Part shown: positions 16,534 through 58,336 of the stretch, in pieces | Layout: every line of letters begins with the position of its first letter | Position numbering within the stretch: position 1 is the stretch's first letter | DNA from: Yuukianura sp. NJ FZ-2021 | Taxonomy: Eukaryota | Direction of reading: 5' to 3' | Length of the DNA: 64,000 nt | Assembly: GCA_046563655.1 (NCBI GenBank) | Contig: CM102289.1 | Coordinates: 4,898,001 to 4,962,000, forward strand | Program-made: the position numbers and the translations under genes | The notes under the pieces: generated by a model | Seen by the model: the letters and a program-made list of their open reading frames with translations, nothing else | Databases searched by the model: none | What the model was told of the DNA's origin: nothing

Positions 16534-16905
16534 TATGTATGTACACATAAAATATTATTGAGAACAATAATTTAAGTTATAATTAACTCAAGCCGATGCG
16601 ATGGTCCAACTTCGATTCTGATCAAAACACCATTGTTTCAAGTTTCCTATTGTTTTAAATAAGCTTCCTGGATTCGGTCATTCAATTGCATTCAATAGTA
16701 AGAAGATAGCGAATATTTAATAACATTCATAGTAAAGGCCAGAAAAATAAGGTCATAAAGCATAACTTACGTCCAGAAACTTTCAAGAACGACCTAAAAA
16801 CCTTATTCAGTCCATAATTCCAAAAACATAACAGGAAAACAAACTACACATGATATTACCAAGTTGGAAGTCAGCATAATCATCAAAAATCATGTGGAAA
16901 ATTGT

Positions 16906-19900
16906 TTAGTAAGGCGGATGACCCCGTCCGCGCACTCCGTGCGGCCTTGACCTTCGAGCACTTTGACTTCCGCGTGCCCGAAATGGATTTCCTCGCAGTG
17001 GTGCTGGGGGTTCGGGCGTTGGAGCTGGAATGGTACGCAAAAGCGGAACTGGACGGCCCCGATGACCTCCACGCCCAGTATGTCCATGACCTAAACTTCC
17101 GAGTGCCCCTGATGCTGAAGAAGAAGATGTTGGTTGATCCCAAACAATCGGGGTTGGTCTGGTGCGTTGCTGCTGTTGAGTAGTCAGCTGTTGGTCCCCT
17201 GACACTGGGCGAGATGTCGATTGCCCTTGACTTCCAGACAATGCTCCACTGGAACTTCCTGGTCCCGACTCCAACTTGTCCTCATCTGAAGATGTTACGG
17301 AAGCTTCAGTCCTTGGGAGTTCACTTCCAGCTTCTTCTGCTCTCTCCGATTCTATGACCAAAAATAGAAACATTATATAATGTCTTAACCGAAATTAGGG
17401 CAACATTGTTTAAAACAGAATCACCAGTCGGAATTTGATTTCGTCCAGCAGTCGTCGTGCCCTCACTTCGCGCCTCTTCAGTTGAACTTCGATCCGAAGG
17501 TGTTGAGATGCTCATGGATGGAACTGTTGCAAAAGATTCTTGATGACTGGCCCTTGGCTCAATATTGGAACTCGAAGGTTGGCCATCTCCTCGTTCTAGC
17601 TCACCTTCAACCAACTCCCCATCTTCTCCTTGGTCTCCTACTTCGGCTGCTGTCAAATACATATTCGTAATCAACGTCATTTCACAACGTGAAACTCCAA
17701 ATAGAATTTACCTGGTGGTGACACTTGGACGGGAGTCGAAGGAACACTTCTCCCTGATCCTTCATCGTACTGCGGAAAATCACGGTTTTCATCTGGTCCT
17801 AGGGAAATGGTATGATAAAAAATTAGCTCAAATTACAAGCACAACGTGTGACTCCAGAAATTGTAACAAAAGTGGAGTAAGTACCTCCAAAAACAAATTG
17901 ACGGCCAAGACTTGAAACGTGAGGCGAACTCACAGCTTCAGCAAATCCATCAGTTCGGCGTGGAACGAAAAGTGTTGGCGTACTGGGAACGATGCTGTCA
18001 TCCGGCTCATCTCCTCCATACTATCCAGTATAATTTGATAATTCACAAATTCAAACTTCTGACAGTAATTTTGTTTCTCACCATATGATAAGATGGTGTC
18101 ATTGGAAGTTGTTGTGGTTGCGGCTGCTGTCTCTCAGCTCGAACCGGCTGTTGCCGTCCAGGCCCAGCAGCTCTAGGAACTTGTGGACGTGGAACGTTCT
18201 GTCCACCAGTAAGATCATCACTGCCATTGGGGTTAACAGGACTTGCCTCTCCTGCTTCTTGGTTCATGTCAACTTCGTAGTCATCGTCTTCCAGCATTAC
18301 CACATCCTGCTGACTCGAATCTCCAAGTTGACTGTTATCCACTGCCAAAATTAAACGGAGATTTTTTAAACACATTTCCAACTTACTGTGTGCTATGTAT
18401 TATACCTTCTTCCAGCATTCCATGTCCACTTTGTGCTTCGTCTTCTTCCTCGCCTTCTTCCATACTCTCTTCTCCGACTTCTTCAATGCTCTCAGCCTCC
18501 TGGAAAGTTAGATATACGTAAAGTCTAAACTAAGGCAATTAATCAAACAATTACTCAGAACATACCCGTCCTTCTTCAGCATCTTCCTGATGGATAATTT
18601 CAATATCGTCATCCCCTTGATCCTCATCCTCTTCACCGACATCTTCGTATTCTTCCAATGCTTCTTCGGCTTCTACATCTTCATCTTCACCTTCTTCTGC
18701 TCCCTCTTCTTCATCGTCTTCCTCGACACCTTCCTCCTCATCCTCATCTTCTACACCGTCTCGAGCGTCGTTCTCTTCCTCATCCGATGATTCAATAACA
18801 ACCACATCTGAATCCTTATCATCTTCATCCTCAGCACGATGACGAGTTGGGAGTGTCCGAGTTCTCCCCGAATGCGGTACTTGTGGCTCATCATCTTCTT
18901 CAACAACTTCGCCAACTTCAGATGGATGTCCTTGGCCTCTAGCTTCTGCTTCTCTGTCAATGCTAATTTCTGAAGATTGTGGAGCAAGGCGAGTACGTTT
19001 CGTAACAGGTTCTTCACTTGGTGGTGCATCTTCTGTCGTTTCCACTTCGTCTTCGCGAGATCGTTTGGAAGATTGAGCCGGGCGAGAAGATGAAGTCGAA
19101 GGGCTTGGTTCTTCTTGTCCTGCTGCTACTCCACCTTCTGCTTCTTGGGATGATACAGGTTGAACGGAAGATGATTCTTCAACTACTTGAGCAGTACGAT
19201 TTGGAGTAACGAGAATTACTGGTTGATGTGAAGAAGGTTCAGAGGAGGAGACTTGTTCTGAAGAATCGCCCATCTCAGAGTCCAACTACAGAAAATTAAA
19301 AAAAAAACATTGACAAATTGATAAAAATCAGCTGATTCAAAGATAGAATGCTATTTAAACGTAAAACTTCAACTTACATGTGAAGTCGTTGATGTTGCTG
19401 GTGGCTCTTGCTGTGTATGTGACCCACTAGGCGTTGATTCAGCCGGTGGGGCCTGTGGACCACTACTGGCAGCAGGTTCTGCTGGTCCAGGAGTTGGACC
19501 AGAGCCAGAAGGTGTCACCAAAACTTGTGGAAGAGCCTGAGTTGGTTGGACAGTGGCTTGACGAACATTTGTTGAATTCGTTACAGTTCCAGTTGAAGCA
19601 CTTGAAGTCACTGGCGGTTGATGATGTCCAGCCTCTGCCGACTGATCTGGTGTGGACGTCGATACTTGTGCTTGACTTACTGGTGCTGCAGAGGGTGACA
19701 CAGCAATAGTCATACTTGAGCTCGTTCCTTGACCTTGGCCTTGCTGAGGAGGAAGAACGTGAAGTGGTGGAGGGGGAGTCAGAGCTGTGGTAGGCATCAC
19801 CGTAGCCTTTCGAAGCATTGACATTGGTCGGATGCTTGCTGTTGGTTGTGGCCTAGATGTGCTTGGAGGAACAACTTGTGTCGTTGTTCCTTTCGGTCCC

Positions 19901-22900
19901 GGAGAAGCGTTTCCAATTGGTTTGATATTAGCTTTTGGTGGATCCGTGGAATGAGTCTTATCACCCGGAGCTGAAGTGGATTTGGCTGCAATTGTTCCAC
20001 TTGGTCCAGGAACTGAGCCACTCTTGAGCACGAGTTGCTTTTCCAGAACAAGAATCCGTTGCTTCTGCATTTCAATTTCCTTCTTCAGTCCTTCATTCTC
20101 GGTAGCCATTTCTGATGTTCCAGCGACAGCAGGTCCAGGCTGACCACCAGCAGTTCGTAAATCCTTATTCTCAGACTCAATACGACTCAATCGTGCTTCG
20201 TATTGAGATTTGAGAGCTGCTTGACGTACATTGGCTTCTTCCGTGCTGGCTTCCATAGTCGATAGTTTAGTTTTCGTATTCATAAGTTCTTGTTCCTGTT
20301 CCGTTTTTTGTTGTGTGATTGCGGCCACTTTATCTCTCATTGTTTTCAATGCGACTTTGGCTCGCTCGTCTCTCTGTGCAGTGTCCTGCTTGAGAGCTTC
20401 CAAGTCTTTCTGCAGTGCTTCGTTCTGTGAAGAAAGTTCGGCGACTCGACCCTCAAGTTCAGCGATTTGTACTGGAGGAGCAACAGGTTGCTCTGTGCCT
20501 GCAGGAGTGGATGCAGAACCGGGGGCAGTTTCACTGCCAGACGCTGATGTCTCGTTAGCCTTGACGGCATCTTCGAAAGATTTTTTGTACTTTCGCGCCA
20601 AAAGTTTTATCTGCAGTAAAAAGAAAAAAGGAGTTAAAAAAAGTTATTAATTAAACTACACGTACATGTTAAGCTGCATGTAAGTGTTTACTCGTGTTGT
20701 TAAAGTCAAACCTGTTTAACGTATGCCTTTTGCTCTTCGACTTCTTCAGTCAACTGTTTCACAGACTTTTCGCTCCCTTCAAGTTCCGTCACTTTTCCTT
20801 CGAATTGTTTCTTGAGTTCCACCAGTTCCTTTTGAAGTTTCTCTAATTCAGTTGCAAGACCAGTCTTGTAGTCATTGACTCGCTTCAAATCTTCACTCAT
20901 CTTCCGGTTTTGGTCTGTCGAAGACTGAAGAGATACTTGAAGTTGAGTCACCTGACTTTGTGATGCTTTGAGTGCGGAATCCATCCGGACATTTTCAGTG
21001 TACAATTTCTTGCGAATCTCCTCCGTTCCATTCAGTTGTTTCTGCAGGTAGTCCTTCTCAGCTGTCACCTTTTTCATTTCTTCTGGATTGAATTTGTTAT
21101 TTTTCTCAATCAAAGCGTTTGCTCTGGCTCTCCATCGCGCAATGTCCTGTTTCAATCCTGTGTTCTCAGATGTAAGACTTTCCAAATCGCCTTCAAGAGC
21201 TTGGAGGCGGGAGTTGAGTGGTTCGATCGTGGACTCCGTTTCAGCCGTTTTTACTTTCATAGCCTCTAGCTGCTGAACGAGATTCTCTCGCTCTTCCCGC
21301 AGAAGCCTAATCGATAATAAATAATAAGAATTAGTCGTAATGTTAGTAATAACCAGCAATACAACGTATAACGATCGAAGATTTGCAGGCATCATACCTG
21401 TTGCTGTCTGTGAGAGCACTAAGAGTTTCTATTTTTCGCAGTAACTCCGCTGTTTTTGAAGAAGTAATCAACGACGTTTGAGACTGAGACTGTAGCTGGT
21501 TGAATTTCTCTTCCAATTCTTTGTACTGCCTCTCAGCATACTCCATTTGACTCTTGAGTCTTGCTACCGTAGATTCAGAAGCTTCTACTTTGCTATACGA
21601 AATTTCTTTCTGGCGACGCATGTAACGAAGTAGCTGTAACCCGTTAAATCAGACACAATGCTCAACCAACACAAAAATTAAAAAAAAAATATAGTCAAAA
21701 CGTTATTTTTACGTACCTGAACCCAATGCTCAGTTGACCGCGTCTTCTCTTCATCTTCGGCAAATGAAGCATCGGCTACAGAACTGAAAGAAACATCCAT
21801 ATCTGCTCCAGTAGCGCTTAAATCCAAGTTCCTCTTTCCTTCCAATTGGGCAGTAAGTGCCAAGAGTTGATCCTAACGAAGATAATTAAGTACAATTACA
21901 TTTACTTTACATTACTTTACGATTATTCATGAAATGAATGTTAACAGCTGATGATTGATTACCTGTAGAGAGGTATTGAGTGTATCCAATTCTGCCACCG
22001 ACAGAGATAGACGCTGGATTTCTTCCAATAAGCCTTTATCTCTTCCTTCACTTCCAGCTTTCAACTCCTTCAACTCTTCTTCCAGCAAAATCTTATCTCG
22101 AGATACAGTTGCCAACTCATTTCGAACGGAATCCAACTCATTCCTGATTTCATTCCGATTCTCAACAACTGAAGAATGAAAGCCCAACTCGTTTTCAAAT
22201 TTTGTTTGAAATTCTCTTGTTAGTGCTTGCTGCTTCTCAAGATCTGACTTCAGTTTTGAATTTTCTTCCTGTGCTGTCTGAAGCTTGGACGTTATTACTT
22301 GAGCCTCCCGCTCAATACGTTTCAGTTCTGCTGAGCCGGTTTCTGCCTTTTGGTTAATTTCTGCCGTCAGTGCATCTTTGTCTAACTTCAGCTGAGTTGC
22401 TTCTCGTTCAATTGTGTCTAAACGACACTGGAGATCACGAATCATGTCATCCTTGCACCGGAGTTTCTCTTCAGCCATGTTGTCAGTTGAAGCTCCAATC
22501 TGTTCCTCCAGATTCTTCGAAAGAACTTTGTATTCTTCAACACTGGATTTTAACAAAGCAATTTGTTGTTTGGATGTAATCGCTTCACGTTCCAAAGTCG
22601 CAATTTTAGTGTTGAGTTCACGTGTCTGTTGATCCTTTTCCGCTTGTAGCGTCTGAAGGGTTTGCAGCGTAGCAGCAGCATTGCCGTGCCCCGTGAGCAC
22701 CTAAAAGTAAACAAAACAAGATTAAGACAAAATTCCATTCATCTTGTGCATTAGAAGCTTAAGTTTCATAAGTTAGTTTACCTGCACTTGACCCAAAAGC
22801 TTCTCAATTTCAATTCGTTGAGCACGAATCGTTCCAGCAGCAGTTGCCAACTCAGCCTTGACCTTTTCATGACCTTCCACGGCTTCTTTAGCTTTGGCTT

Positions 22901-25843
22901 CCAATTCAGTAGTAACTTTAGTCCAAGAAGTAAAATTAGCCTTGAGCTGTTCTCCTTCTGCCTCTGTCTTTCTTCTCAATAGAACATTTTCGGCCTTGAG
23001 TGACTCCAGTTCAGCTTCCAGTTTAAGCTTGGCAGAACTGGATGCCAATTCCAAATTGTTCCTAATTTCAGCCAAATTAACTTCCAGCATCTTGCACGTT
23101 CTCTCTTCTCGCTTGTACAGTTCCAATTCGGCTTGGAGTCGACTCTTTCCGTCCCTCAGCGAATTTCGTTCAGTTGTGATAGAAGCGAGTGCTACTTCGG
23201 CTCGAGCCAATTTGTCTTGATTGGCCATAACTTCATTTCGGAGTAGCTGCGAAGTCTGTTCATGTTTGGCAACAGTAAGAGATAACTGTTTGTTCTTTTC
23301 CTCCAAAGAAGTAATCGTCTTCTTATAAGTGTCCATATTGGCAGAATAAATCTTGCTACGTTCGTTGTTGTAATCCACTTGCGATGATAGTTTTGCATTG
23401 TCAGAACGAAGTCGACTCAGATCGTCACGCAGTTTCTCCATTTGCTCTGATGCAATTTTTTCATTGGCTCGCATCTCAAATCGATACGTTTCAAAATCCT
23501 GCTTCATTTCGTTGTAACTTGCTTCAAGCTGACTGTACTTGGCTTCGGCTTCAGCTGATGAAACTGAAATCACTTCTCCCGATACTCCAAGCTTCGGTGA
23601 CTGGAGTTGCTTACCAGGACTGGCCAACAGTTGTTGTTGTCTCACTGTTGTTAGAATTGACTCTTGACGAAGCCGCATTTCTTTGAGGTCTTCCAATTCC
23701 TTAAGAACTTCCTCATAAGCAGCCTTGATTTCTTCAACTTGTCGTCCATCAGCTGATTCTGCTGCTTTCTCACGTTCTTCCGACAACTCACGAACAAGCG
23801 ACAAGAGATAAGCATTTTGAGACTGGAGTTCGTCAATGTTTCGGTATGTAACAAGATTTGAAGTGATTAGCGTTGAAGAGTCCAAAACCCCAGACAACTC
23901 CATTGCTTCTCGTTCACGATCTTCATCTTCAGCTGCGTAGGCATAAGTCCCTCGAAGATTTTCAACTTCACGTAGAAGTACTTTAATTTGATTACAATTG
24001 TCAGTCATCTGAGACTTGAGCCGACTGTTTTCTCGTTCTATAGAAGAAAGGCTTTTACGAGTAAATGCATATTCGTCGCGAATTTTAGCTTCACTGTCCA
24101 TTGATATTTCGAGTTGATTTGTAAGAGCATCAATAGTTTCTAAGCAGCGGACATAGTCTTCTTTCTGTGCCTTTATCAATGGACCTCTGATGGCAATGTC
24201 ATTCACAATGTTCGCAAGTTCGTCACGCAATCCAGCATTTTCAGCCTGAAGTGTAAGAAGGTCTTCTTGAGCCGTAGTCAGTTTGGAGTAAATTTCAGTT
24301 AGACTGTGAGTTCCACGTAAGAGATTACTCACAGCAGCGGCCGCTGGACTTAAACTTTCAATCATTTCATCCGTGAGGCCTTTTTCTTTGAGATGTTTCA
24401 GGAGTTCGTTGGCTTGTTTTAATTCTGTTTCCAAAGTGGCAATCTTTGCATCTCGAGAAGCAACTTCTTCTTGATAGGATTTCCCAGAATTGGCAAAGTT
24501 TGTTTCCAATTCGCCGTAACGGTCAGTAGCTATAGATAGAAGGCTCTGTAAGTTAGAAACAGCTGATTCCAACTCTTTGATTTTCTTAAGTGAGTCATCG
24601 ATATCTTCTTTGTACAAATTGGCAAGCTTAGCCTGAGTTTGAAGTTCAACTCGGTAGTTCTCTTCTATTTTGAGTTCCATTTCCTGGGATTCCCGAAGTT
24701 TTTGAAGGAGACGTTCGATCTGGCTCTCTTGATTAGCATTTAGAGCCCTTGCATTGACTAAAGACAACTCCGCTTGACGCAACTAAACGATAGGTTCAAA
24801 GAAATCATGAAAACATCACGCTGAGCAGTAAAAACCGCACTGATAGTTGGTAAATGTGTTTCACCTCTTCACTTTTTTGAGCCAGTTCTGCCTGGGTAGA
24901 TAAAAGGTTGGTAGTGTGATCACGTTGCATTTCAACGATTTGCGAGTTCTTTCGATCTAACTCAGTGTTCAACAGTTGCACTTGCTTGTTTACCCACTCC
25001 CGCTCCTTTTCCAATTCCTTTTCCCTGATATTTTTGTTATGTTATTCTCATTGAGTGTAATGCTTGTAATATTATGAGTTACCTGTAGTCCAGATCAATT
25101 TTCTGTGAAGTCATTTCATCGACTTTGAACAAAGCTGTAACTTTTGCTCCAGTAGCTGAGTGGAGTTGGTCTGAAAGCGATTTCTTCTCGTCAGTTAGGT
25201 CTTCAACTTCCTTAATCCTTCGTTCCAAAATATTTACCAAGCCTTCCTTCTCAGCTGCTAGAGTCTGAAGTTTGAGAGAAGCTTCGTTGAAGCTGGCTTG
25301 AATACTATATAAGAAACAGCGGTTATAACAATAGTTTCAGGAAAGGTTAGCAGCAAAAACCAAGCTAAGAACTCTCAAAATGTATTACTACTTCTACTTA
25401 CTTTTGAAGGTTTGCCTCCAGTTGATTAATTGTGGTAAGAGAGCATCGGTACTTTTCAACGTACTCCTCAGAAGTTTTCCTTTCCTTATTGAGTTGATCA
25501 TTGGCTGTATTGGATGCATCTCGAACTTCCTTCAATTGTGTTTCTAGAGTTCGAACTTGTGCTTCTGCAAAAGGATAAGAATTAAAATGCAACTGAGATA
25601 GGTGAGGTAGTGAGGTAGGTTACCGACTCTTAACACAGTGTACTCACCGTGTGCAATTCTGTCCTTCTGTTTCTGATTTATGTAACCATGTACCTTCCTG
25701 GTCAGTTCTTCAAAATTTACAGCAACTTTTGTCCTGATAGCGTCCGGAATTTCATTCCGTTCATCAGCCGTCAGAAATGAAAGCACATGGACGTGTAGTG
25801 GATCTACCACATCTTGATCCATCTCCCCACCTTGTCCTAGCAT
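16906..25843 (-). CDS. Tpr: Nucleoprotein TPR / Megator, multi-exon
   Basis: Long coiled coil with [31 protein letters not shown] and [10 protein letters not shown]; acidic region; [27 protein letters not shown]; Arg/Gly-rich tail. Confidence 0.95.
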
Positions 25844-27730: not shown

Positions 27731-28459
27731 GGTATTTCAGCAGTGAGGGGTCAGCAAAGGTCGCTTTGTGATCTGAGCAGTCAAGAACACTGAACAAGTC
27801 CCTGTTCCTTGCTTTGACTTTTCTTTTCTTTTAACTTCTTCTAATTTCGTGTTAAGTCTAAAACCAGTTGTGAGATGTGATTCATTAAGCTAATTAAGAT
27901 CATTTAACTCCTAGTTAAATCATAGTTCGTGGAATTCTGCCCTGTTGAAACAAAAAGTTAAAAGCAATCTAGCGCCATATAGGAAGCACAAATTACAAAT
28001 CAATTCTTTCGAAAGAAACTAGTTTAGCAACTATTTTATAACTAGGTTAATGAATGAATTCCCGCCTTTTTGTATTTAAGTCAAAAATCAAATTTAAATG
28101 TTAAGGTCAACTGACTGACGTTCAATTAGCTTAGACTATAATTCAATTAACTGGAAAAAGTAGAGATCATAATTATTAACAAAAGTTTATCCCGGGCTGA
28201 CCCTTGACCCACTGAATTATGTTTACGTCATAAAGAATGAGCATTTCAATTTTCTCAGATGAGTAAAATAGTGGCGGGAGTTCAAAATTTTGAAACCGAT
28301 GGAGAAATCTCCGAAGTGCAGAACTTCTTTGTTTGCTTTTTGTTTTTCACTTTTTTTCACATTAGAAGTTTTCAAAAACTTCTAAACTTCATCGGTGGTG
28401 ATGACACAGCAAATAGCGGTTTGGGATCCTGAGATCGATTTTTGGTTATTGATTTCACA

Positions 28460-29808
28460 ATGATGGTGTCACTGCTTGTTGTGCTCGGTTTCATCTACAT
28501 ATCCAGTCATCAGTGTTTGGCTCGCAATGGAACAACATTTCCAGAATGGATGCAGTAAGTCAATTCAGAATGAAATTGAAAGGTGCCGAAACCAATGTTT
28601 TCTGTTGTCTAGACATGGGATTTCGGAGAGCGACTATCAGCAGATTAAGGCGAATACCACTGCAGAGATTCTGGACAAGTACATCTTCATGAACCAGTCA
28701 TGCGTAAGGGAGACGAGCATGAGTATAGAAGTGCGCAATCGAACTGTTCCTTCGCGGATTCACTACCGATGGCCATGGTTGACACAGAAGAACAGTTTCC
28801 GTACTACTTCCGTCTGGCAGGATCATATGAACAGAACATCGGTGTATCCACATCACCAAGTCGTCAAGAGCCAACTCAGTCCATTCAAGGTGTTTATCAC
28901 GTACGTGTTTTGTCAACACATTTTGAAAATTATGAGACATTTGAAAGCGAAAATGTCATTTTCGCTTTCAAATGTCTCATAATTTCATCCAAAAGTTTAA
29001 GTTCCATGTTTTTTCATTCGCCTTTTGAATCGAAATACTTTGCAGATTCCTTGGGATGTGCCTCTGCCTTCTGCTGTTCGTAATACTCTTGTTCATTCCG
29101 CTCGCAGGCCTGCTCTTCCTCCTTATAGTGTTTCTCTACTTTCTGATCACTAATCGTCCAATGCGAAATATGATGCGATCTTTCTTAATTAAAAGACAAA
29201 AGAACAAGCGGCGATTGGAAATTGCTCGTACGCCAGACAAATGTCCACTGGAACCTCCCTATGCACTTCCACTGTTTTTCAGAAAACACGAAGATGACTA
29301 CTACCCTCAAGAACTGGAAGAGTACGACATGGAGCTTAAACGAAAACACGGTCGTCTGCCTTCAGAAGTTAACATTAATGATCGATTTGGAAACTACATG
29401 TTGCAGCGTGACCTGGACTATGACCCCCTCCTTCATCGGTTCCGCCATCGGGGTGAAGCGATGCCAGAAGATGCAAAGGAATCTGCGGAACTGCGACGCC
29501 GCCTCAAGGCTCAGCGTATCCAGCAGGCTCGTGAAATGCTGGCTCAAGAGGAGCAGTACATTACAAACATCCCATCCTACCGAATCAAGGCCATTGAACT
29601 TGGGATTCCCTATGCTGAAGATGAAGAACGCCACGTAGTTTTGACGACACTTCAAAAAACTTTACCAAAAAAGAAGTCCAAACCGTCTGCTCTCGATGTT
29701 ACAACAAAAGTTATAAAGAAACGTACCGCAGCAAAAGTTAGGCCGGCCAAAAGAAATCCGGAAGATGTTGAAGCTGGACCAGATTCCGAACCTGGCGCCA
29801 ATAATTAA
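28460..29808 (+). CDS. Uncharacterised type I membrane protein, 3 exons
   Basis: Signal-like MMVSLLVVLGFIYISSHQCLA; luminal exon with N-glycosylation sites; long hydrophobic segment followed by a basic, charged tail. Confidence 0.6.
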
Positions 29809-30163
29809 ACTCAAGCAAGTTTGATCAAAAGAGTTTTCAAATACACTTATTCTCACAATGAGAACGTTATCTCTTAAATATATAAATGAAATGAGGTTGT
29901 AACAAAAATTGAAAATAATTACAACGCATGCGCAGGGCCAATTTTTTTTTGTTTGAAAGTCGGAAATACACGTGAAAAAAAAATGAAATTACATCAAATA
30001 TTTAAAACAAACATTTACTGTGTACAAAGCAAGGCCAAAATTATTCAAGTTTTTGAAATTCGGTGGTGGCGTACATCGCCACCAGTAAAGTGTGTTGAAC
30101 CCTAACTGAAACCTACAGCCTAATTGATATTATGTTTAAAAAAAATATGTATCATGTGTAAAA

Positions 30164-31645
30164 TTATGTCTTTTGTCTTTTGGTTCCTCCGAATCGGTAC
30201 GGAATGACGTCCAGACTGGCGAACTGCGATATATCTTTTGCGTATTCTTTTCTATCAGTACCTATTGTTTTGAAGGCATCTCGCGTCGACGCAGTCATCA
30301 ACGGTCGCATTAAGTTAAATACAGGATCAAATATTTGTGGAGCTAAAACAAGTAATTGATGAGTAAATATATTTAAAAGTGTTAATTATTATGTAATTAC
30401 ATTTAAGTACAATTTACGTATGTATTGAATTAATTTCTTACTGTTTATGCAGAGAACCCTGTAGAAGTTATAGGGGTAATGCACCTCGTGATGAACCACC
30501 CAGTTCAAATAGAACGGAATACCTAAAAAGTGGGGAAATTGAATTATTTCAAAATTCGAACCGTATAGTTTTGTAAATTACTTGAACGTTTATGGTATTG
30601 AAAGACTGTTTTAAATGCTTACATCCTACACAAGCGTGCTTTCTAATTGAAAATCCTTGCATGTCCACAATGAGTAAGGTCGTAGGGTCACCCGTTGTAT
30701 TATATGCCAATTGTGCTGCTTTCTCCTCCATGTAGTCAAGACGTAACCCCAATTCACTCACGACTTTTCCCTGCAGAGCCTTACGACGCAAGTCCCAGTC
30801 TCCAAACGGAATCATACAAACTACACATAAAAATATTATTACAAATAGAAGTAAAAAATTATTCAAAAAATTACAACTTAAATGTCGAAAATTTTAAAGT
30901 GTGTATTACCTGGGTTTCCTGCTTTGTCTTTAGCACTGTTGTAGTCCATAACGTATTTTTTGTCCACTTCGGTTCCAAAATCGTAGCCTGGCAAATTGTC
31001 AGCGTCTACGGTCTTACGCCATTCCAATGTCTGAAAAGCAAGGTATTGCACGTACGGAGTTATTAATTAAGAATTCATGGTACGCAATTAATTAAGGGTG
31101 TTTATTAATAAAAATCGATTTCAAAGTTGAAAAATTTTACCTTTTCCAAAGCTTCTTTTGCTTTTTCATGATCGAATTCCTTCGCTAAAATAAAAATTGT
31201 TTATTCAAGACAATTTTAGCGTAAGAAAAATTTAAGCTGTTTTTTCACAGTTACCTTTGAGCCATTTGATCAAATAGACATCTGATTTCATATAACTTGC
31301 GGTCAATTTCCCAATAACAGAAGACCTCAACTGTGAACAAATTTAGAAAAATAAATAGATGTGTTAAAAATTAAGAAAATAACAATAAGAATTAACAAAA
31401 ATCATAAATCATGGTACTCTCGATATGAAAAAATAGTTACACGTTAGGGAAAACGACAAAAAAAGTTAAAAATGAAAAAATAAAATTTCATAAAAAAAAT
31501 CGGAGCGGCCAGTGGACCAACGCACGTACATTACCTTATCAATGGCTATTTTCTCTTTTTCCGTAAACTCGGGAGGTTTACATTCAGAATAAGAGAAAAA
31601 GGACAAAAGCAATCCCAAAATTATTCCGAATTTGGCGGTTTCCAT
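30164..31645 (-). CDS. SEC14/CRAL-TRIO protein with signal peptide (paralogue 1)
   Basis: SDVYLIKWLKAKEFD..AKEAL; IVDMQGFS; HHEVHYP; IPYRFGGT. Confidence 0.85.
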
Positions 31646-32535
31646 TTTTTTGCAAATTCGGTTCGGTGAAGGAATGTCGTAGAAGATTTTTTGCTGCAGA
31701 CAACTTGTTGCCAAATGCAGTTTGTAACGTTCAAGGCCTTCTTCTGCCTTAAATATGGCCAACCCAAGGACAGAAGTTGTCAGGACTTTGGTGGATGCTA
31801 ATCAAGTAGTTGTTTGCTACTTCGTGTCACCAATCGTTTTGTTGATTTGAGAAAAACAACCAATGAAAGCAGATATAAACAAAACCTACACCAACCTGTT
31901 TTCGTTCGGTTTAATGCTATTATTCAAGAACGCCACTTGAATTTTATGTTCTCGTTCCTCAAATGTATAAATGTGGTGAACAAGTTTCGGTCGTTTTTCT
32001 TTTATATAGTTAAAAATACTAAAAGATTTTTTGTACGCTTACTAAATTTTTTTAATTGTTGCTTGAAATTTAAACAGTTGATTACAACGCTCAATTAAAA
32101 TAGTTTTTCAACAATCTTTACTCACTCCATGGCTTTTTGGACCACAGAGAACACAGAAGCGAAAATCCAAAATTCCTTGATGAGGCACGTACTGGAATAT
32201 GTGGTTTTCCAAACTTGAGTTCAAATCTGCTTACAGTTGCGCAACTAAGCTTGTTGTTGAACAGTTTTGTTTAAAAAAAATCAAACCAGTTTTTATTGTT
32301 TCTTTCGTGACATGTAGTCAGGTAATTTATACATGCACTTATGAATATTTTTCAGGAGGAACTCCATGTGACAATGCACTTTTAGTAAGAAAGTAAAGGA
32401 CGTCCACTCATCGGGAGTGGCTGCCTTAAGTGATTTTGAATCGCATTTTTCATTTTTTGGCAAGAACAACATTTTTTTTAAACTAACAAGTGACTAAATT
32501 AACTACATAACAAAACTTGAATAAAATTAATTTAA

Positions 32536-33855
32536 CTACGTTTTTCTCTTTGTTCCGCCAAATCTGGGCGGAAGTGTTGTAAGGTCAACTGTTTCTGCAA
32601 TGAAGGCTGACCATTCTGCTCGGTTGTGACCCATCGTTCGAAACGCCGTGCGAGTCGAATCCGTCATCAACGGTCGCATCAAGCTCAGAATCGGATCAAA
32701 AATTGCTGGAGCTATATTGGATTTGGATTTGACACAAAAGAAAATACAAAATTTAATATAATTTATTTTATTATAATACTATTTATACAAATTATTATAA
32801 ATTGAATAGTAATATATGCTTACTGTTGATACAAAGGACTTTGTACAAGTTGTAGGGGTAGTGCAGCTCGTGGTGTCTCACCCAGTTCAGATAGAAAGGG
32901 ACGCCTGAGCAAAGTAAGCAATTCATAAATAAGCAAATAATAATTACTATTATTAAATATATTAAAATAATTAGTATTTACATCCAGCACATCCGTGCTT
33001 GCGTAGTGAGAATCCATTTAAATCTGAGATCAGCATTGCCGTGGGATCTCCGGTGAGGTTGAACGCCAGTTGAGCTCCTTTCTCCTCCATGAGGTCAAGG
33101 CGTCGTCCGAGGTCATTGACCTTTCCTTCAAGAGCTTTCCTCCGCACGTCCCAGTCACCAAAAGGAAGCAACATCACTAAGCAAACAAGCCATTTGCTTT
33201 AGATTGAAAAGTTTAATTTAGAGCTTGTTCTTAAACTGGAATGATACCTGGTAGACCCGAAATGTCTCTAGTAGTAGTGAAATCTACAACATATTGTTTT
33301 GCCGCAGCACCGACATCCTCTTCTGGCAAGTTGTCAATATTCTCAGCTTTTCGCCATTCTAAAGTCTAAAAAAATAATAAAGAAAATGTAAGTCTTTGAA
33401 TTTTTAAGAAAAGTTAAAACAAAATTTGATAAACTGTCAAAATTCTTTCTTGGGTTTCCTCACTTTTTCAAGAGCTTCTTTTGCTTGGGCATGATCAAAG
33501 TTCTTAGCTGTAAAAATGAATTTGATGAATTTAAAAAAATACAGTTTTAAATTCAAAGCTAATTTTTCATTAAGAATACCTTTGAGCCATTTATACAAAT
33601 ATGCATCTGACTTCATATATTTCGCAACCAACTTTGAACTAACGGCACTTCGCAACTACATCACCAAGAAAATTATGTTACATCAAATTAAAAAGTCAAA
33701 TTATGTTACTAAGCCTTAAATATTAAATTTATCAAACGATAAACTCTGCTCACTTTGTCAATTGCCGCCTTGTCCTTCCCAGTGTACACCGGAGCTTTCC
33801 CGGCAGAGAAAGTAATTAGGAAAGAAACTAGAAAGCCAAAATGTAATATTTGCAT
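32536..33855 (-). CDS. SEC14/CRAL-TRIO protein with signal peptide (paralogue 2)
   Basis: SDAYLYKWLKAKNFDHAQAKEAL; ISDLNGFS; LPPRFGGT; same exon structure as paralogue 1. Confidence 0.85.
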
Positions 33856-34620
33856 TTTTGAAGTTTCAAGTGCAAGGTTTGTTTCGCTTTTCAAGTGCTT
33901 TTGTTCAAGTGGACATGTATATTGAGGAACTGCTCATTTAAATAACAGTTTTCAAGGTCATATACGAGATCATTAGGCTTGTAATTTACAAGTTGTAAAT
34001 AGAAACAAGAGGGGTAGTAAAGAATTTTGAAGAAATTGAACGTGTCAATTATTTTTTGGTTTATAATAAATATAAAACTGCACGCCGGGAACCTGTTTTT
34101 ATTTGCGCAGAACGTGGTTTTCAATTTTCCACTTGGATTTACTTGCAGTAGATTAACCTAGGGAAGATTAATTTTTTAAAACAACTTTCGTTTGCATTTA
34201 AAGCGTCTTTTTCCTCATCTTCTCTACTATTTTTCCAAAACATTAGATATGGAAGATTTTCTGAACTGTGCAAATCGTAAATGAATTAGAATAATGAAAT
34301 AACTAAAAAAAATGTTGTTGCACAAAGAAAACAAATTGATACTATTAGTTTGCTAAAAATAATTAACATGTTCGCAACCTGGTCAAATTACAATGTCTAC
34401 AACTCCGGAAAAACAAATTAGAGTGTCCCTGTTGGAACTAATTGTTCGATAATATACTCAATTTCATTTCTCCAATAAATAAAGACTAGTTTGTTGAAAA
34501 AAACAGAGATTGAAAAAAATATCAGAAAACTGGCAAATCAAGTCACTAAAATATATATGTTGAGAAAGCTTCACAAATTACGTTTGTATTAAATTTTGCT
34601 ATTTTTAATTTTCATGCTGT

Positions 34621-36346
34621 TTAGTTAGTCTTGCCAGGTTCGCCAATTTTGTATTTGTCATATAATTCGACTATGTCGTTCACAAGCGACCTCATCATGA
34701 CCTCGGAATGAAATGGTGTTGGAGTGATTCTTAGTTTTTCTTGACCTCTGGGCACAGTTGGGAAGTTGATGCCAGGGACGTAGTGCCCCTTGACTTGGAT
34801 CAACTCCGCCGCAATTTTGAAACACAGAGCAGGATTTCCTACCTAAAATATTAACGAAAAAAATTTACTCTAAAACTATTTAGTGCCTAAAATTGGAGTA
34901 AAATACAGATAGTGTTTAAAAATAACGCATGTGCGCTCCTCACAATAACAGGAATGATGTGAGAATCGTTTTGTTCCAGCGGCAACCCAGCACTCGTCAA
35001 CAACTTTTTCAAAAATTTGACATTCCGGTGCAATTTTTGCCGCAACAGAACGCCTTCTTCGGATCTGATAACGCTGAGTGACATCAATGCACCAGCGAGT
35101 GCCATTGGTGAAATGGACGTCGTAAAAACAAATCCGGGCGCGTAACTTCGAATTGTATCGATCAGAGATTGGCTTCCAGCCAAGTACGCTCCAGCAGTCC
35201 CTAACGCCTTGGCTACAGACAAAATCATTTTAATTTTCTTTTAATTAGTTCCAAAAAATTCGCAATTTTTTAAGCCTTACCTAAACTACCAGCTATGAGA
35301 TCCATATTTTGAGTAGCGTCAACCAGTTGGCCAATTCCCGCTCCACTTTTCCCGTAAAGTCCAACTGCGTGCACTTCGTCGACAAATGTAAGAGCACCAT
35401 GCTGCTTTGCAACTGCGCACAACTCTGCGACATCCGCCTTCTCTCCAGTCATTGAGCAGAGGCTTTCGAAAACAACAATTTTGGGCCGACTGAGGTCGGA
35501 TTGACTGAGAAGTTGAGCTAAGTGTGAGGCGTCGCCATTTTTAAAAACATGTTTTGGCGCTCGACTGCTGATTATTCCTTGTAAAATAGATGCGTGGTTT
35601 TCAGAAGCCGAATAAATTTCCACGCCTGAAAGCAAATTAAAGTTTCAAAAGTCATTTTTAAAAATAGTTTTCATTTTTCAAAAACGAACCTGGAATTATT
35701 TTGCCAAGGAGGGAAATTGCCGAAGAATTTGACAAAAATCCAGAAGACGAGATGAAGGATGCTTCTTTCCCGTGAAAATCCGCTAATTCACGCTCCAGCG
35801 TCAAGTGCAGCTCTGATGTGCCACAAATTCCACGAGCTCCAGCCGACCCTACGCCATAGAGGTCAATGGCCTTACTAGAATAAATAAAAATTTTGTTCCT
35901 TTTTTTCTCCTGAGTGTTCAAAAAAAAAATTAACCTTACTGCACTGCCTGTGTCACTTTCGGGTGTCGGCTCATTCCCAGCACATCATTGGCACACCATA
36001 CAGTGATGCGCTTTTTCTTTGCCAATCCTCCGTTTTCAATGATTTCGTCGGCTTCAGGGAATGCCGACGCATCGCGATTCACGACGTTGAAAACTCGGTA
36101 AATATTCGCATCTTTCCGTTCTTGAATTTTCCTTCGCATGAATTCTTCATAGTCAAATCCCTCGTTTCCTTTCTTCGTACGGCAAAACCTGACACCTAAG
36201 ACGACAACAAAAAACGTTCAATAATTTCGGTATTTCTTTCTTTTGATTGTGTTTTGTTTATTTTGAATTATATTGGAAAGTAGGTAGGTTTAGACTAAAT
36301 TACTTGTTTCCGTACCTGCTCCTTTCAGACGCCGAAGCAATTTCAT
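34621..36346 (-). CDS. Divergent ALAS-type PLP-dependent alpha-oxoamine synthase (candidate BioF-like activity), 6 exons
   Basis: [67 protein letters not shown] (PLP Lys)..[23 protein letters not shown]. Confidence 0.9.
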
Positions 36347-36573
36347 AGTAAGGGCAGTTGCAGAGCGTGGTAAATCACTGAAGGTTGGAAACCTTTGCTG
36401 CAAGGTCAAAGGTCAAAAACCTCGTACGACACTCATCACCTTTAGTAAAAACATTGGCTGTGTGCTGGTGATCTTTGTCTGCTAGTAAAAAAAATCATTC
36501 AACTTCACTCAATTGTCATCTCCCCTCAACTTTTTATCTTAAGCGATTGCGAGAGGGAGACTCTTCGTTCCAT

Positions 36574-36618
36574 CTATTCACTTCGTGTTGCGTACATCGA
36601 GATACACGAAGTGAATAG
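36574..36618. promoter_or_regulatory. 15-bp perfect inverted repeat in the divergent promoter between the ALAS-like gene and bioD
   Basis: CTATTCACTTCGTGT-N15-ACACGAAGTGAATAG. Confidence 0.45.
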
Positions 36619-36720
36619 TTTTTAAGATTATACAATTTTAAACAAACCATAAATTATTTTTTCGAAATTATTCTTAAAGTTTCTCAAAAACTCTGGACTG
36701 TTTAGACAACCATTAAAAAC

Positions 36721-37410
36721 ATGGTTTTGATTTTTCAGAGACTTCTCACCCAAAAAATTTTAAATGTACCAAAAACACAAAATCCAGTAACAAAAATTTT
36801 TGTAACAGGAACAGATACTGACATTGGGAAAACTGTTGTTTCGAGTTGGCTCTGCCTCCATTCTCGCTTTGACTACTGGAAACCAATCTCCAGTGGATCC
36901 GATGACCTTTCGACCTCAGATTCAATGTTAGTCAAAAGTCTTGCAAAGGTCAAAGTTCATCCCGAAGTTTATACTTTTCGTCAGCCACTGTCACCACACT
37001 TGGCAGCACAAAGAGACAACGCTATAATCAGTTTAGAACAAATCAGCCTGCCGCAGAGTGAGCAACTGATTGTAGAGGGTGCTGGTGGCGTTTTGGTTCC
37101 CTTGAATAAGGATGACCTTGTGATTGACCTCATCAAGAAACTTGACCTTCCAGTGCTCCTAGTCGCCAGTTCGAAACTCGGAACCATCAATCACACACTT
37201 CTTAGCATCGAGGCGCTGAGTTCCCGTGGCATTCCAGTGCTTGGGGTCATTGTCAAGGGGAGTCCAAATCAAGACAACTGTGATGCCATTGCACATTACG
37301 GTCAAACTCAAGTTTTGGCGCAAGTGCCACATTTTGAAAACGTGACTACGGAACATCTTCAAAATTTACGCTTGACCCCAATTCTAAAAGAACTGCTTTG
37401 TTTAATTTAA
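36721..37410 (+). CDS. bioD: Dethiobiotin synthetase, intronless, bacterial type
   Basis: KIFVTGTDTDIGKT P-loop, KPISSG, LSPHLAA, VEGAGG, LGTINHTLL. Confidence 0.96.
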   Translation: MVLIFQRLLTQKILNVPKTQNPVTKIFVTGTDTDIGKTVVSSWLCLHSRFDYWKPISSGSDDLSTSDSMLVKSLAKVKVHPEVYTFRQPLSPHLAAQRDNAIISLEQISLPQSEQLIVEGAGGVLVPLNKDDLVIDLIKKLDLPVLLVASSKLGTINHTLLSIEALSSRGIPVLGVIVKGSPNQDNCDAIAHYGQTQVLAQVPHFENVTTEHLQNLRLTPILKELLCLI

Positions 37411-37473
37411 AAAACAAAGTTTTTTATTTTCTGAATTCAAAAATTTCCGAAATTCAAAATCAAAAAGTCACTA

Positions 37474-37487
37474 TTTATTGAAATAAA
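37474..37487. terminator. Back-to-back poly(A) signals for convergent bioD and bioB
   Basis: TTTATT (AATAAA on minus, 37474-37479) next to AATAAA (plus, 37482-37487) in the 195-bp gap between the stops. Confidence 0.5.
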
Positions 37488-37605
37488 AATGGCAGTGGTG
37501 ACAAGTAATCGCAGAATTGGGTTTTAGTTGGTTTAGAATTAATTTTGTAATTCTTTTGTAAAGTTGTAATTCTTTTAACTATAATAATTTTTGTACTTGT
37601 GTTTG

Positions 37606-38577
37606 TTATTGGTTCATCGCTACTTGTACTTCAGTTGTTCGGAGAGGTTCTTTTTCAAATCCCAATTTGGTGAATAAAATGTCATCTTTTTCCGGACTTG
37701 GATTCGGCGCAGTGAGTAACTTTTCTCCATAAAAGATTGAATTCGCTCCAACTAGAAAACAGAGTAGCTGCATTTCCTGACTCATACTTTCCCGCCCTGC
37801 TGACAACCGAACGTACGACGTCGGCATCATAATCCTCGCTAAAGCAATTGTTCTAACAAAGTCCATTGAATCCACTTCCGGGGAATTCTCCAATGGCGTT
37901 CCAGGGATGCGCATCAACTTGTTGATCGGAATTGATTCGGGTGGAGTCGGAAGACTAGCCAAAGTCAGCAGCATTTTGATTCTATCGTCATTCGTTTCTC
38001 CCATTCCCAGAATTCCGCCACAACAAACCTTGAGGTCAGCTGACCTCACATGCTCCAGCGTGCGAATGCGGTCTTCAAAAGTGCGTGTGGTGATGACCTC
38101 CTTGTAGTAATCCGGGGACGTGTCAATGTTGTGGTTGTAAAAATCTAGACCAGCGTCCTTGAGCGCCTTGGCTTGAGCTTCATTTCGAAGTAGTCCCAGA
38201 GTAGCACAAGTTTCGAGTCCAAGGGCCTTGACCTCTCTGACCATTTCTGAAATGGTGTTGATTTGTCTGTCGGTGGGTCCACGCCATGCTGCTCCCATGC
38301 AAAACCGAGTACTTCCTGCAGCTTTGGCTGCTTTAGCGGCCTTTATGACATCCTCTAGAGCCATGACTGGTTGTTTCTGAAGTCCCGTTTTGTAACGAGC
38401 AGACTGCGGGCAGTAAGAACAGTTTTCTGGACAACTGCCCGTTTTGACGCTGAGTAGCGTACTGACTTGGATCAGTGTCGGACTGAAGTGCTGCCGATGA
38501 GCCACTTGTGCTTCGTAAACCAATTCGGCCATTGGCAAATTAAAAATTTGCTTTGCACGGTTCAGTGTCCAGGCCAT
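37606..38577 (-). CDS. bioB: Biotin synthase (radical SAM), intronless CDS, bacterial type
   Basis: [15 protein letters not shown] (CxxxCxxC), [38 protein letters not shown]. Confidence 0.98.
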
Positions 38578-39945
38578 GGCTCCAATCTTAGATTTGAAAG
38601 TCCTAAAGGCATAAAAAGGTTGCAGTAGTATAGTAGTCTTTAAAACGCCTGAAAATCAGGTAACCCACCTACGTTCGTTCTGTAAAGATGATGAAAAGTT
38701 TTGAAAAAAAAATTCTCAAACCAAGAATGATTTAAAAGTAATAATTTCATAATTTATAAGTTCTTAAACCTAAAAAAAGCTGCAGAACCACAGAATTTAA
38801 AGCGTCTCCAACATGCTTGAAAATCAGGCACTAGTGTACTTCCAAACACGTTATAAAATTTTGAGAAAAAAACATTTTAAACAAAAGCAAATAACTCACC
38901 TTTATAGGAATTTGGAGCTAACTAAAATCAGCTGCCGAAATTGCTGTGCTCTCGTGTTATTTGATGCTCGTGTAGCAACAAAGTGGTTTGGATGATAAAG
39001 GCAAAGTGGGTTAATCATATAGAGTTTGCATGGTTCTGACATGATCGTCTGATGCCCCTAAATACTACAATCCATTTGAACTTATCGCTTCAAAAACAAT
39101 TAACGCTATCAATAAAATAAAATTTAATAAAAAGAAATGAGAAAGTATATTAAGACGAAACTCTCACCCATTCGACTGTTTAGCTTTACGGAAAATGACA
39201 TCGACGTAAAAAGTAGATTATATAATTGATGTTATATATTAAATATATATTAAAAATATTAAATTATATAATTAATACTATACAGTAAGGTACATATGTA
39301 AATGTTATACACGAGAAAAGGCTTCTTGAATAGCGACTCACAGTTTTGTCGGCGCAATTTTTGAGATTTTTTCGAATAATTCTGTTGACCAAGACCACTG
39401 AGCCTGTTAGGGGTCTCATGAGGTTACATCATCAATAGATTCACCAGGCCCTTTGGTCCAAGGTTGCTATAGCGCCCATTTATACGAATGCTCTAACAGG
39501 TTACGCCATAATTCCGATTTTTTTGAAAAAAAAAACTTTCAGACCAATTTTGCGCCAACTTTGTTCATTTTCACAAGAAAGGACAGTTTCGATTATTAGG
39601 GTGAACTGGGCCCAAAAAATAGGGTGAAGGACTACTTACAACATAACAAAATTTTCACAATTCATCAATAGATCAATCATAGGCTTAGCAAGTAAGGACC
39701 AAAATTTCGCGATGTTGTAAGTAGTCCTTGCATTTGAAATTGCTTGAAATGGACATTCACTTTTGGCACTTTTTTTCTAAACAAAGTTCGACTTTCTCTA
39801 AAAATCCTGAAGAAATGCCTTAGCAACAGTTGTCGCTTGACAGCTTGTTTACAGTTTTTTGGTTTTGTAACTTGAAAAATCAAAATTTTTGTTTTTGGAG
39901 AAGTGTAGAACCCAGAATGCTTTGCATTCTTCCCTTCCCAGGGTG

Positions 39946-51997: not shown

Positions 51998-54016
51998 TCA
52001 ATTTTGTTGTTCGCGTTCCTTCATGACGACATAGAAGTCTGGAGGCTCCAAACTGTCTAAGATTGGAACTGGCGTCGTGTTGGGCATTGGTCTTGATGGG
52101 TCAGCTCTTACGTCAAAATTTTGAAAAATTGTTGTCAAAAAAAGAAAAATTTGATCTCGTGCCATTGGTTCGCCAATGCACGAGCGCCTTCCAGTAGAAA
52201 ATGCAACAATCCGATCCTTTAGTTGTATCTGCCCTTCGGCATCAATGAAACGTTCCGGGCGAAAGTTTTCTGGATCGCCCCATACTTGTGGATCATGGTG
52301 TACAAAATACTGGTTGGCCACAATGGCTGTTCCTTTGGGAAGGTCATGACCTTCAAAAGTCGTATCTTCCGTAGCTTCATGGAATCCTCCAAGCGGACTA
52401 AACGATGACATGCGCAGAGTTTCACAAATAAAGGCTTCGGTGAAAACCATCCTTATAGAACAAAAAATTGGGTAAACTTTTTTTGGAATTTTTTTTTAAA
52501 TTTAGGTTTACTTTGGCTTGTCTGCGAGGGAAGGATGTCGACTTTTTCCCACGACTCGGTCAATTTCATCCTGCAGTTTTTGCTGCACATCCAAGTTGAG
52601 GATGAGGTAGAGTATGGCCCACACTAAACTCATTGACGTTGGAACAGATCCGGCCATAAACAAGTCAAATACAAGTACAGCCAAATTTTTGTCTGAAAAA
52701 GATTAATTAAAAATTTTGAAAAATTAAATTTTGAAGTGAAAGCTAGAGTATATGATTTTTTTTTAAATCAATAATAGTTTACATCCTACGTCGCCAAAAA
52801 ATGAAGAATTCGGATCTTTGGTATTTTTAATTTCGGCTAAATATCCGTCGATGAAATCGCGTGGATGAAGTTCTTTATCCGTGTTGAACTCTTTTTTATG
52901 TTGATCCACTTCTGGTTTAATGAAATTGAAACTGCCTTGAATTGCTCCTTGAAATCTGTTCCAACCACTCAGATTTGGAAACAATTTGGCAAGCTTTGGT
53001 GCAAAGAAAATCAATATTGGATTTGCTCCTCGAGTTGAGCTGAGAAAGTTTAAATTTCATTTTGAGTATACTCTTTTGGTTAAAAATGTTGACAAAATTA
53101 ATTTAAAAATCTTACACAAAAAGTTGTTCGTACAAAGCGTTTAGTTTAGGATCGTCTTGTTTAAAACGTTTTCCAGCAATCATTCGCCAGAGGGCGTTGA
53201 GTGTTGCTAAAATAAATTTACGATTGAGTGTAACTGGATTTCCGTTTTGCAGTTTTATCCAGTCCACAAATTCTGCCACTTCTTCACCAATCATTTCCTC
53301 CATCAAGTTTCTTCCAAATCCAAAATCCTTCAAGTGTCGAACAGTGAAACGACGCTGCTCTTGCCACTGTTGACCCGAGGTCAAGTTGATTCCTCAAAAA
53401 GTAGCAAATGATGCTATTGTAAATACACTCAGAGGTGAAAAAAAAATCCCGTATGTTTAATCACCATAAAAGCCGTCCTCAAACATCCACATCTCCACCA
53501 TTGGCCTTCCACTTAAATTTGGGTGGTTGAATGCCTTTTTGATCAAATCCAAATCTGACAGAACGATATGCCTAATAAAAAATTAATTCTTTTAACTTGG
53601 TAGAAACAAAAATTTTTCTTTGAAGAAGAAAAAGAAAAAAGAAAAAAAAATCAGGATTTCGAACAATTTGTGACTCGAGAACCGTAAATTTTTTTACCGT
53701 TTGTTGCAAATGTACATTTGGTACATTTTTCCATACTTCCTTGCCCATTTTCCAACTGTCAAGTGAGGAAACTGTCCCATGGACAAAATATTACCAAAAA
53801 TTGGCAAAGCAAACGGACCTGTACATAAGGAAAGTTTTGAAACATCAAAAAACAAATTTTTCTACACTTTGAATGCTTTCTTCAATGAAATAAAGAAACA
53901 TAAATCAAATTTTTTTCACCATCGATATGTCTTGATGCGGATTTTCTGTGAAAGAAACCAAGCCAGACGAAAGAAAAGAAACAAATCAAAAGTGCAACAA
54001 TGAGCAGGGAAATCAT
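51998..54016 (-). CDS. Cytochrome P450, CYP2 clan, multi-exon
   Basis: N-terminal TM, WQEQRRF, ETLR, PERF, FSTGRRSCIG. Confidence 0.95.
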
Positions 54017-58082: not shown

Positions 58083-58336
58083 TTTTGCAACAGTTGAAAA
58101 ACAAGTGGGCCAAAACACAATTTGTTCTACTCTTTGTCAAAATTTAGGTTGATATGGGGTCAGAGTAGGTTTGACCTTTCGTTCCTGTCAATCAAACGAG
58201 GTTTGCAAAAACACCTTTGTTGCAAAATTTTGTTCCTCTTTTGTTATTGTCTAATGGTCTGGAAAGGAAATTTCCAAAAAAGCGGAAGCTTACTCTTGCT
58301 ATCTTCTATTGATTTTTTTCTTCTATTTTGACCCAG

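Follow-up and report, generated by a model that had tools for sequence, protein, structure and literature searches.

We predict that the ALAS paralogue encoded in this window, the whole 64,000-nucleotide stretch of Yuukianura DNA analysed here, probably acts as the missing BioF of a biotin pathway, converting L-alanine and pimeloyl-CoA to 8-amino-7-oxononanoate. Strong indirect support for this role comes from the adjacency of the gene to bioD and bioB, the presence of bioA in the same genome, the hole at bioF, and a pairing with bioD that is kept in a second species. Counting against it are a pocket that differs from that of BioF, searches that found no bioW, bioC or bioH, and a diverged second copy of bioA. 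To our knowledge, animals are regarded as biotin auxotrophs. The fuller reading, on which we are evenly divided, is that an arthropod carries the whole four-step biotin ring pathway in its own genome, likely mitochondrial and symbiont-free, with bioA, bioD and bioB coming from an intracellular bacterium and an ALAS turned into a BioF by a route of its own. If true, this would be a natural switch from glycine and succinyl to alanine and pimeloyl substrates, and an animal making its own vitamin B7.

The coding sequence of the paralogue is interrupted by five introns, all of them GT-AG and 64-120 bp long (Table 1). Its phase-1 intron after exon 1 is also present in the orthologue on metagenome contig L030 described below. 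The sequence-only reading had placed the gene at 35270..36346; it extends to 34621, and exons 5 and 6, which encode the PLP lysine and the LRI arginine, fall beyond that span. These two residues, DEVH, NHAS (as SENHAS) and the YR arginine are all present in the spliced protein, as had been claimed, with GSLAKALG as the PLP-lysine motif. The first 21 amino acids include eight Lys or Arg and no Asp or Glu, a composition from which a mitochondrial targeting presequence is predicted. The same reading had noted a presequence free of Cys-Pro motifs, and this holds for the entire protein, which has none compared to five in the normal ALAS of the host. A single-sequence fold of P0001 reached a pLDDT of 33, too low to use.

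Table 1. Positions of the ALAS paralogue, its exons and the biotin genes, in window coordinates unless a locus is named
Feature	Position	Strand	Remarks
ALAS paralogue	34621..36346	-	Six exons, 435 aa, intact open frame
Exon 6	34621..34842	-	NFPTV (Asn362 and Thr365 kept), LRI arginine, stop codon
Exon 5	34944..35212	-	269 nt; PLP lysine at 35210-35208; Gly255>Ala
Exon 4	35281..35625	-	345 nt; Asp138>Ala, His161>Asn; His142, Lys156 and DEVH kept
Exon 3	35690..35874	-	185 nt; Thr83>Ala, Asn85>Gly, Ser87>Cys; ISSSGFLSN
Exon 3 specificity motif	35855-35817	-	Ala 35837-35835; Gly 35831-35829
Exon 2	35940..36195	-	YR arginine (Arg21 of R. capsulatus); ANDVLG (Tyr56>Val)
Exon 1	36316..36346	-	Start codon; basic presequence without Cys-Pro motifs
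Spacer between divergent start codons	36347..36720		374 bp
bioD, dethiobiotin synthase	36721..37410	+	TIGR00347, 133.7 bits (cut-off 83.3)
bioB, biotin synthase	37606..38577	-	TIGR00433, 397 bits (cut-off 225)
bioA1	L008:1489-2910 (contig C7, 7.31 Mb)		Intronless
bioA2	L009:1405-2778 (contig C2, 1.86 Mb)		Intronless

Judged by gene structure, the paralogue is an animal-type ALAS duplicate of host origin, because its intron positions and phases are those of the host's normal ALAS: the two genes agree in alignment column and phase at all four core introns. Exons 3, 4 and 5 have identical lengths in the paralogue, the host ALAS and the L030 orthologue. The stop codon of the paralogue coincides with the site of the last intron in the host ALAS, and the C-terminal extension has been lost. 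The normal gene, on contig C8, encodes 543 aa with GAGAGGTRNISGN, five Cys-Pro motifs and that C-terminal extension; in a tree it clusters with insect ALAS (support 98/96), which marks the host as an arthropod, and it is 48% identical to the paralogue. TIGR01821 was the best profile match for every exon scanned (five exons), and full-length identities of the paralogue are 53% to animal ALAS, 47% to bacterial ALAS and 31-33% to BioF. It did not group with BioF, and TIGR00858 was not its best match.

Our trees, a quick first tree and a second built from 24 of 64 rows that omitted BioF, two long animal branches and others, placed the paralogue either inside animal ALAS or at its base; its stem is long (1.2-1.7 changes per site) and the tips beyond it are shorter. 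A long stem with shorter tips fits a change of function. In approximately unbiased (AU) tests, neither a position as sister to the host ALAS (p 0.144) nor a position next to bacterial ALAS (p 0.377) was rejected, and the trees give no date for the duplication. Residues resembling those of bacterial and yeast ALAS (FES, LRIT) led us to consider an origin from bacterial hemA; we rejected it in view of the four introns common to the paralogue and the host gene and the higher identity to animal ALAS.

The remodelled pocket was described by aligning the paralogue with 103 animal ALAS, 68 bacterial ALAS and 61 BioF, the last being E. coli BioF and 60 proteins encoded beside bioB. Residues are numbered as in R. 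capsulatus ALAS: residues 2-60 of the exon 3 query align to residues 72-130 of the 2bwn chain with a constant offset, so the Ala and Gly of the paralogue stand at positions 83 and 85. This confirms the replacement of Thr83 and Asn85 that had been read from the sequence. A search for the same substitutions in bona fide ALAS found Ala83 and Gly85 each in 0 of 171 sequences, and both are present in the paralogue and in L030; among 270 matches, Ala83 occurred only in two short unnamed fragments and the combination A-R-G in none. At position 83, BioF has Ser (56 of 61) or Ala (5 of 61), so the Ala of the paralogue is likewise a small residue; at position 85, BioF has Leu or His and the paralogue Gly. 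Asn85 of ALAS presumably lies at the active site. Gly255 is replaced in both orthologues by Ala, which is found in 58 of 61 BioF and in no ALAS of the 171. Position 362, by contrast, is Arg (of AIRPPTV) in all 61 BioF, and here the paralogue keeps the Asn of ALAS.

Published work describes the gate position as 3.5 A from the substrate side chain, occupied by Thr in ALAS but by Ser in the AONS of E. coli; in ThAOS, the substitution Val79>Ala is reported to have increased efficiency 2.4- to 64.8-fold with four amino acids, including L-Ala (PMC11906848). In ALAS, Thr83 governs the choice of amino acid and places the succinyl carboxyl (PMC4525017), Lys156 contacts the CoA ribose and His142 is catalytic (PMC4615937). 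AlmA, an ALAS homologue, uses L-Ser or L-Ala, and residues 82 and 86 set the choice (PMC12006855). Because of these data on the gate residues of ALAS, AONS, ThAOS and AlmA, a wider amino-acid site in the paralogue is a well-founded prediction. We infer from the pocket changes that a C7 acyl chain would be accepted as well.

Arg21, Asn54, His142, Lys156, Ser189, Asp214, His217, Lys248, Asn362, Thr365 and Arg374 are all kept, as are 104 of the 127 columns that are at least 90% conserved in ALAS; 36 of 44 ALAS-specific columns, Arg21, Asn362 and Thr365 among them, are retained by the paralogue, by L030 or by both. This conservation, the best match to TIGR01821 at every exon tested and the loss of the Cys-Pro motifs would suit a second true ALAS that has shed haem feedback along with these motifs and its C-terminal extension, serving bursts of haem synthesis. 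We regard that interpretation as distinctly improbable: the residues at 83 and 85 have no counterpart in the ALAS sequences compared, a normal ALAS is already present in the genome, and the linkage to bioD and bioB would be left without explanation.

Other changes follow neither family. Six columns common to ALAS and BioF are altered in both orthologues (Tyr56>Val, Leu110>Phe, Phe112>Ser, Asp138>Ala, His161>Asn and Thr245>Ser), and Val at Tyr56 was seen in 0 of 171 ALAS and 0 of 61 BioF. Alterations such as those at Tyr56, Asp138, His161 and Thr245 could be expected of a weak or inactive partner subunit, regulatory or scaffolding like SPT1, of ALAS or of the biotin enzymes. Such a role is highly improbable in our view, given that the equivalents of the PLP lysine, His142, the Asp and His of DEVH, Ser189, Asn54 and Arg374 are kept in both species.

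Two motifs had earlier been singled out as departures from ALAS. SSSGFLSN is present, as reported, and its Gly occurs in all of the BioF sequences; the label "BioF-like" has no diagnostic value, as the same Gly is found in 88% of the bacterial ALAS sample and in the solved ALAS 7x98. Likewise, the change of SNDYLG to ANDVLG was observed, with an ordinary Ala (14 of 103 animal ALAS have it) and the Tyr>Val substitution as the unusual part. At columns conserved in animal ALAS, the paralogue and L030 share 39 changes. These match BioF more often than expected (7.1 vs 2.2, p 1e-4), and they match bacterial ALAS, in a sample chosen with exon-5 words, to the same degree (7.4 vs 2.0 expected). Overall convergence on BioF was rejected as evidence, since bacterial ALAS is matched equally.

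The metagenome contig L030 carries an orthologue of the paralogue, 68% identical over 409 aa and with the same introns. Thr83Ala, Asn85Gly, Tyr56Val, Asp138Ala and His161Asn are all kept in it, and SA, NGD, GSLAKALG, FVFTTSISP and a 19-residue stretch, letter for letter, are common to both proteins. Of the fourfold-degenerate sites, 101 of 138 differ. The LWL85 method gives a dN of 0.25 and a dS of 2.46, and thus a dN/dS of about 0.10 or lower. Synonymous sites are saturated, and NG86 cannot compute dS. This comparison across orthologues, which had been proposed as a check, indicates constraint and not neutral evolution. The SD to SA and HND to NGD changes had been offered as possible signs of decay; they are present and shared with L030, which refutes that caveat.

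We accordingly give almost no credence to a decaying duplicate, for which the long branch of the paralogue might be cited. Decay is excluded because the same odd residues are kept in L030 despite saturated silent sites, and the open frame and canonical GT-AG introns in two species argue likewise. Of 198 differences in related DNA runs, the 40 with the best support include eight silent and three replacement variants in the paralogue, and ten silent and one replacement in bioB. The corresponding counts for bioD, two silent and six replacement, are a small point against the biotin reading.

In L030, a frame with the P-loop of BioD (IFVTGTDTDVGKT) stands head-to-head with the ALAS gene, the start codons being 445 bp apart. 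The contig end breaks this bioD off, leaving the first 29 core residues visible; of these, 15 are identical to the window bioD, and the Pfam AAA_26 match has an E-value of 0.005. The paralogue and its pairing with bioD are known from two species only, a further point against the biotin reading. Other window ORFs of at least 40 aa outside the stretch of the paralogue had no match in L030 at E 1e-5. In the metagenome scan, which covered 30 of 64 parts, two of 591 pattern matches were confirmed, namely L030 and an unrelated bacterial gene (L031); because of this coverage, further orthologues may exist. Protein searches for more orthologues returned only P0001. Intron 2 of the L030 gene (L030:1011-3584) is 2574 bp long compared to 65 bp in the window, and contains a metallophosphoesterase gene (PF00149) on the opposite strand. 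The products of both bioD genes (window 36721-36800; L030:1-173) start with MVL, and their P-loop is preceded by a basic extension of about 25-28 residues, suggestive of the gain of a targeting peptide.

The two biotin genes in the window are both intronless, of bacterial type and present as one copy in the genome, and bioD has a basic N-terminal extension. The paralogue and bioD are arranged head-to-head, with 375 bp from start to start, and the spacer between them is likely to be a shared bidirectional promoter. The window lies on contig C7 of an assembly of 98.7 Mb in 22 contigs, which contains six loci of the family; the chance of one of the six lying so close to the biotin genes is roughly estimated at 2e-4 (6 x 4 kb / 98.7 Mb). 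Named near matches of bioB include those of Wolbachia and the scale insect Parthenolecanium. Among 80 kept genome loci, from a scan of 2 of 64 parts, the closest bioB locus belongs to a Rickettsiales MAG in which bioB occurs together with bioF, bioH, bioC, bioD and bioA.

Contamination and misassembly were ruled out by the host genes in the flanks and by recovery of the cluster in public DNA runs. The cluster stretch is contained in one contig of run X2, and positions 35609 to 38900 were also found in one contig of run X3 from another study, although X2 or X3 may itself be the source of the assembly. The BioB protein P0121 is 80% identical to the window BioB, with the next full-length matches at 72%, and likely comes from a further relative of the host. 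Upstream of the bioB ATG, the frame has no stop for 26 codons (window 38578-38655), behind a likely splice acceptor, and there may be an additional 5' exon that encodes a targeting peptide.

Two copies of bioA scored over cut-off in the host genome, on separate contigs and 59% identical to each other. The product of bioA1 starts with a basic N-terminal extension and has Arg391 (E. coli numbering) in place; that of bioA2 has an acidic N-terminus, Phe at Arg391, Leu at Tyr17 and Phe at Tyr144. We take Arg391, Tyr144 and Tyr17 to be functionally important in BioA. By analogy with what has been proposed for yeast BIO6, bioA2 may have a new function. Each bioA copy sits between exons of a 7TM-receptor-like gene, as judged with Pfam 7tm_1 for L008 only. 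Both bioA1 (L008) and the L033 bioA have Phe at the position of E. coli Tyr17, a feature of the lysine-using BioA of Bacillus, and by this analogy their amino donor may be other than SAM.

No bioF was found in the host genome. The bioF model gave 19 matches, none over cut-off, and all fall in six loci: ALAS, the ALAS paralogue, KBL, two SPT2 and SPT1. With the Rickettsiales BioF as query, only partial matches of at most 70 bits were obtained. The host genome gave no bioW, with a profile that matched in 2 of 14 controls. Of 51 bioC candidates, 17 were scored, and the best of these reached 50 bits, below the cut-off of 185; the one query used for bioH found nothing. The suggestion that the pocket had opened for alanine and a longer acyl chain thus gains from the biotin-gene context and the bioF hole, and is weakened by the several changes that depart from both ALAS and BioF.

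The same departures are compatible with an active alpha-oxoamine synthase that uses a different new pair of substrates, such as succinyl-CoA with serine or alanine; its linkage to bioD would then be due only to bioD having landed on the promoter, and the BioF step would be supplied by bioA2, diet or microbes. Head-to-head gene pairs can endure without a common pathway, and the remodelling of the paralogue is its own and not that of BioF. Repurposing of this kind has a precedent in AlmA, an ALAS homologue that joins L-Ser or L-Ala to succinyl-CoA (PMC12006855), and the divergence of bioA2 at Arg391, Tyr17 and Tyr144 recalls yeast BIO6, for which an origin by duplication and neofunctionalisation of BIO3 has been proposed (PMC7187267). 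We consider this explanation unlikely. It demands a chance landing beside the one family member that has the reaction type missing from the pathway, and the pairing of the paralogue with bioD has outlived the saturation of silent sites while other neighbours are unmatched.

For the paralogue as a BioF substitute, we propose the following course. A duplicated host ALAS would have been freed of haem control by losing its Cys-Pro motifs and C-terminal extension. Space for the methyl group of alanine would come from Ala83, and space for an acyl chain longer by three CH2 groups from Gly85 and the changes around it. The carboxylate would remain bound by Arg21 and Thr365, and CoA by Lys156. The resulting 8-amino-7-oxononanoate would pass to BioA1, BioD and BioB in turn. 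Basic N-terminal extensions, the only basis for judging location, make the mitochondria the likely site. Pimeloyl-CoA would be drawn from the host's breakdown of dicarboxylic fatty acids and not from BioC and BioH, and the shared promoter would serve bioD and the paralogue together.

Compared to animal ALAS (TIGR01821; human ALAS2, 5qqq; R. capsulatus, 2bwn), the paralogue is of the same family and has the same PLP and CoA contacts; it differs in Thr83>Ala, Asn85>Gly and 37 other shared changes, and in its location in a biotin cluster. It resembles BioF (TIGR00858) in reaction class, the small residue at 83, Ala255 and the neighbouring bioD and bioB, and would fill the position of BioF in the pathway. 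It lacks Ser83, Leu or His at 85, Arg at 362 and the DDAH motif, and is not a BioF by descent.

In whiteflies, mealybugs and scale insects, bacterial bioA, bioD and bioB in the animal genome complete the pathway of a symbiont (PMC10158165). The bacterial-type genes described here are alike in kind, but the accessible main text of that paper contains no occurrence of bioF and no mention of a host-derived substitute. In the present case, the gap in the pathway would have been filled by remodelling an enzyme of the host. In yeast (BIO6/BIO1), as in our reading of this genome, transferred late biotin genes were completed via duplication, neofunctionalisation and clustering; BIO6, by which yeast is proposed to have filled the same gap, would be a duplicated and neofunctionalised BIO3 (PMC7187267). 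The yeast substitute would thus derive from a transferred gene, whereas here it would derive from a host haem enzyme, in an animal. AlmA (PMC12006855) and a cyclizing ALAS (PMC4525017) are likewise built on an ALAS scaffold in which a residue of the Thr83 loop has changed, and they too make a new product; both keep succinyl-CoA and belong to bacterial secondary metabolism, unlike our reading of the paralogue.

Our searches of the open literature, from which subscription journals are largely missing, turned up neither an ALAS-derived BioF nor a crustacean or springtail genome described as having biotin genes. The open literature also yielded no paper on T148A, and the accessible text of one crustacean genome paper mentions biotin in its methods only. 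For enzymologists, the paralogue could provide a natural experiment on substrate choice in alpha-oxoamine synthases, as the 39 shared changes on an ALAS scaffold can be tested singly and in both directions against the normal ALAS of the same host.

The remainder of the window contains host genes, including TPR (about 16900-24800), IST1 (2646-3425), P450 and HSP20. A gene resembling FAD-dependent monooxygenases (PF01494) at 10443-11579 (+) is a possible further transfer. BioI, a P450, makes pimelate in Bacillus; the cytochrome P450 exon at 51998-52495 (-), 13 kb from bioB, is probably from an ordinary host P450. At about 28000-33950 there are three similar minus-strand genes, apparently in tandem, with motifs that we take to be SEC14/CRAL-TRIO-like; the one exon scanned had no Pfam match. 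Two exons resembling HSP20/alpha-crystallin belong to one or more genes at 55602-58136 (-).
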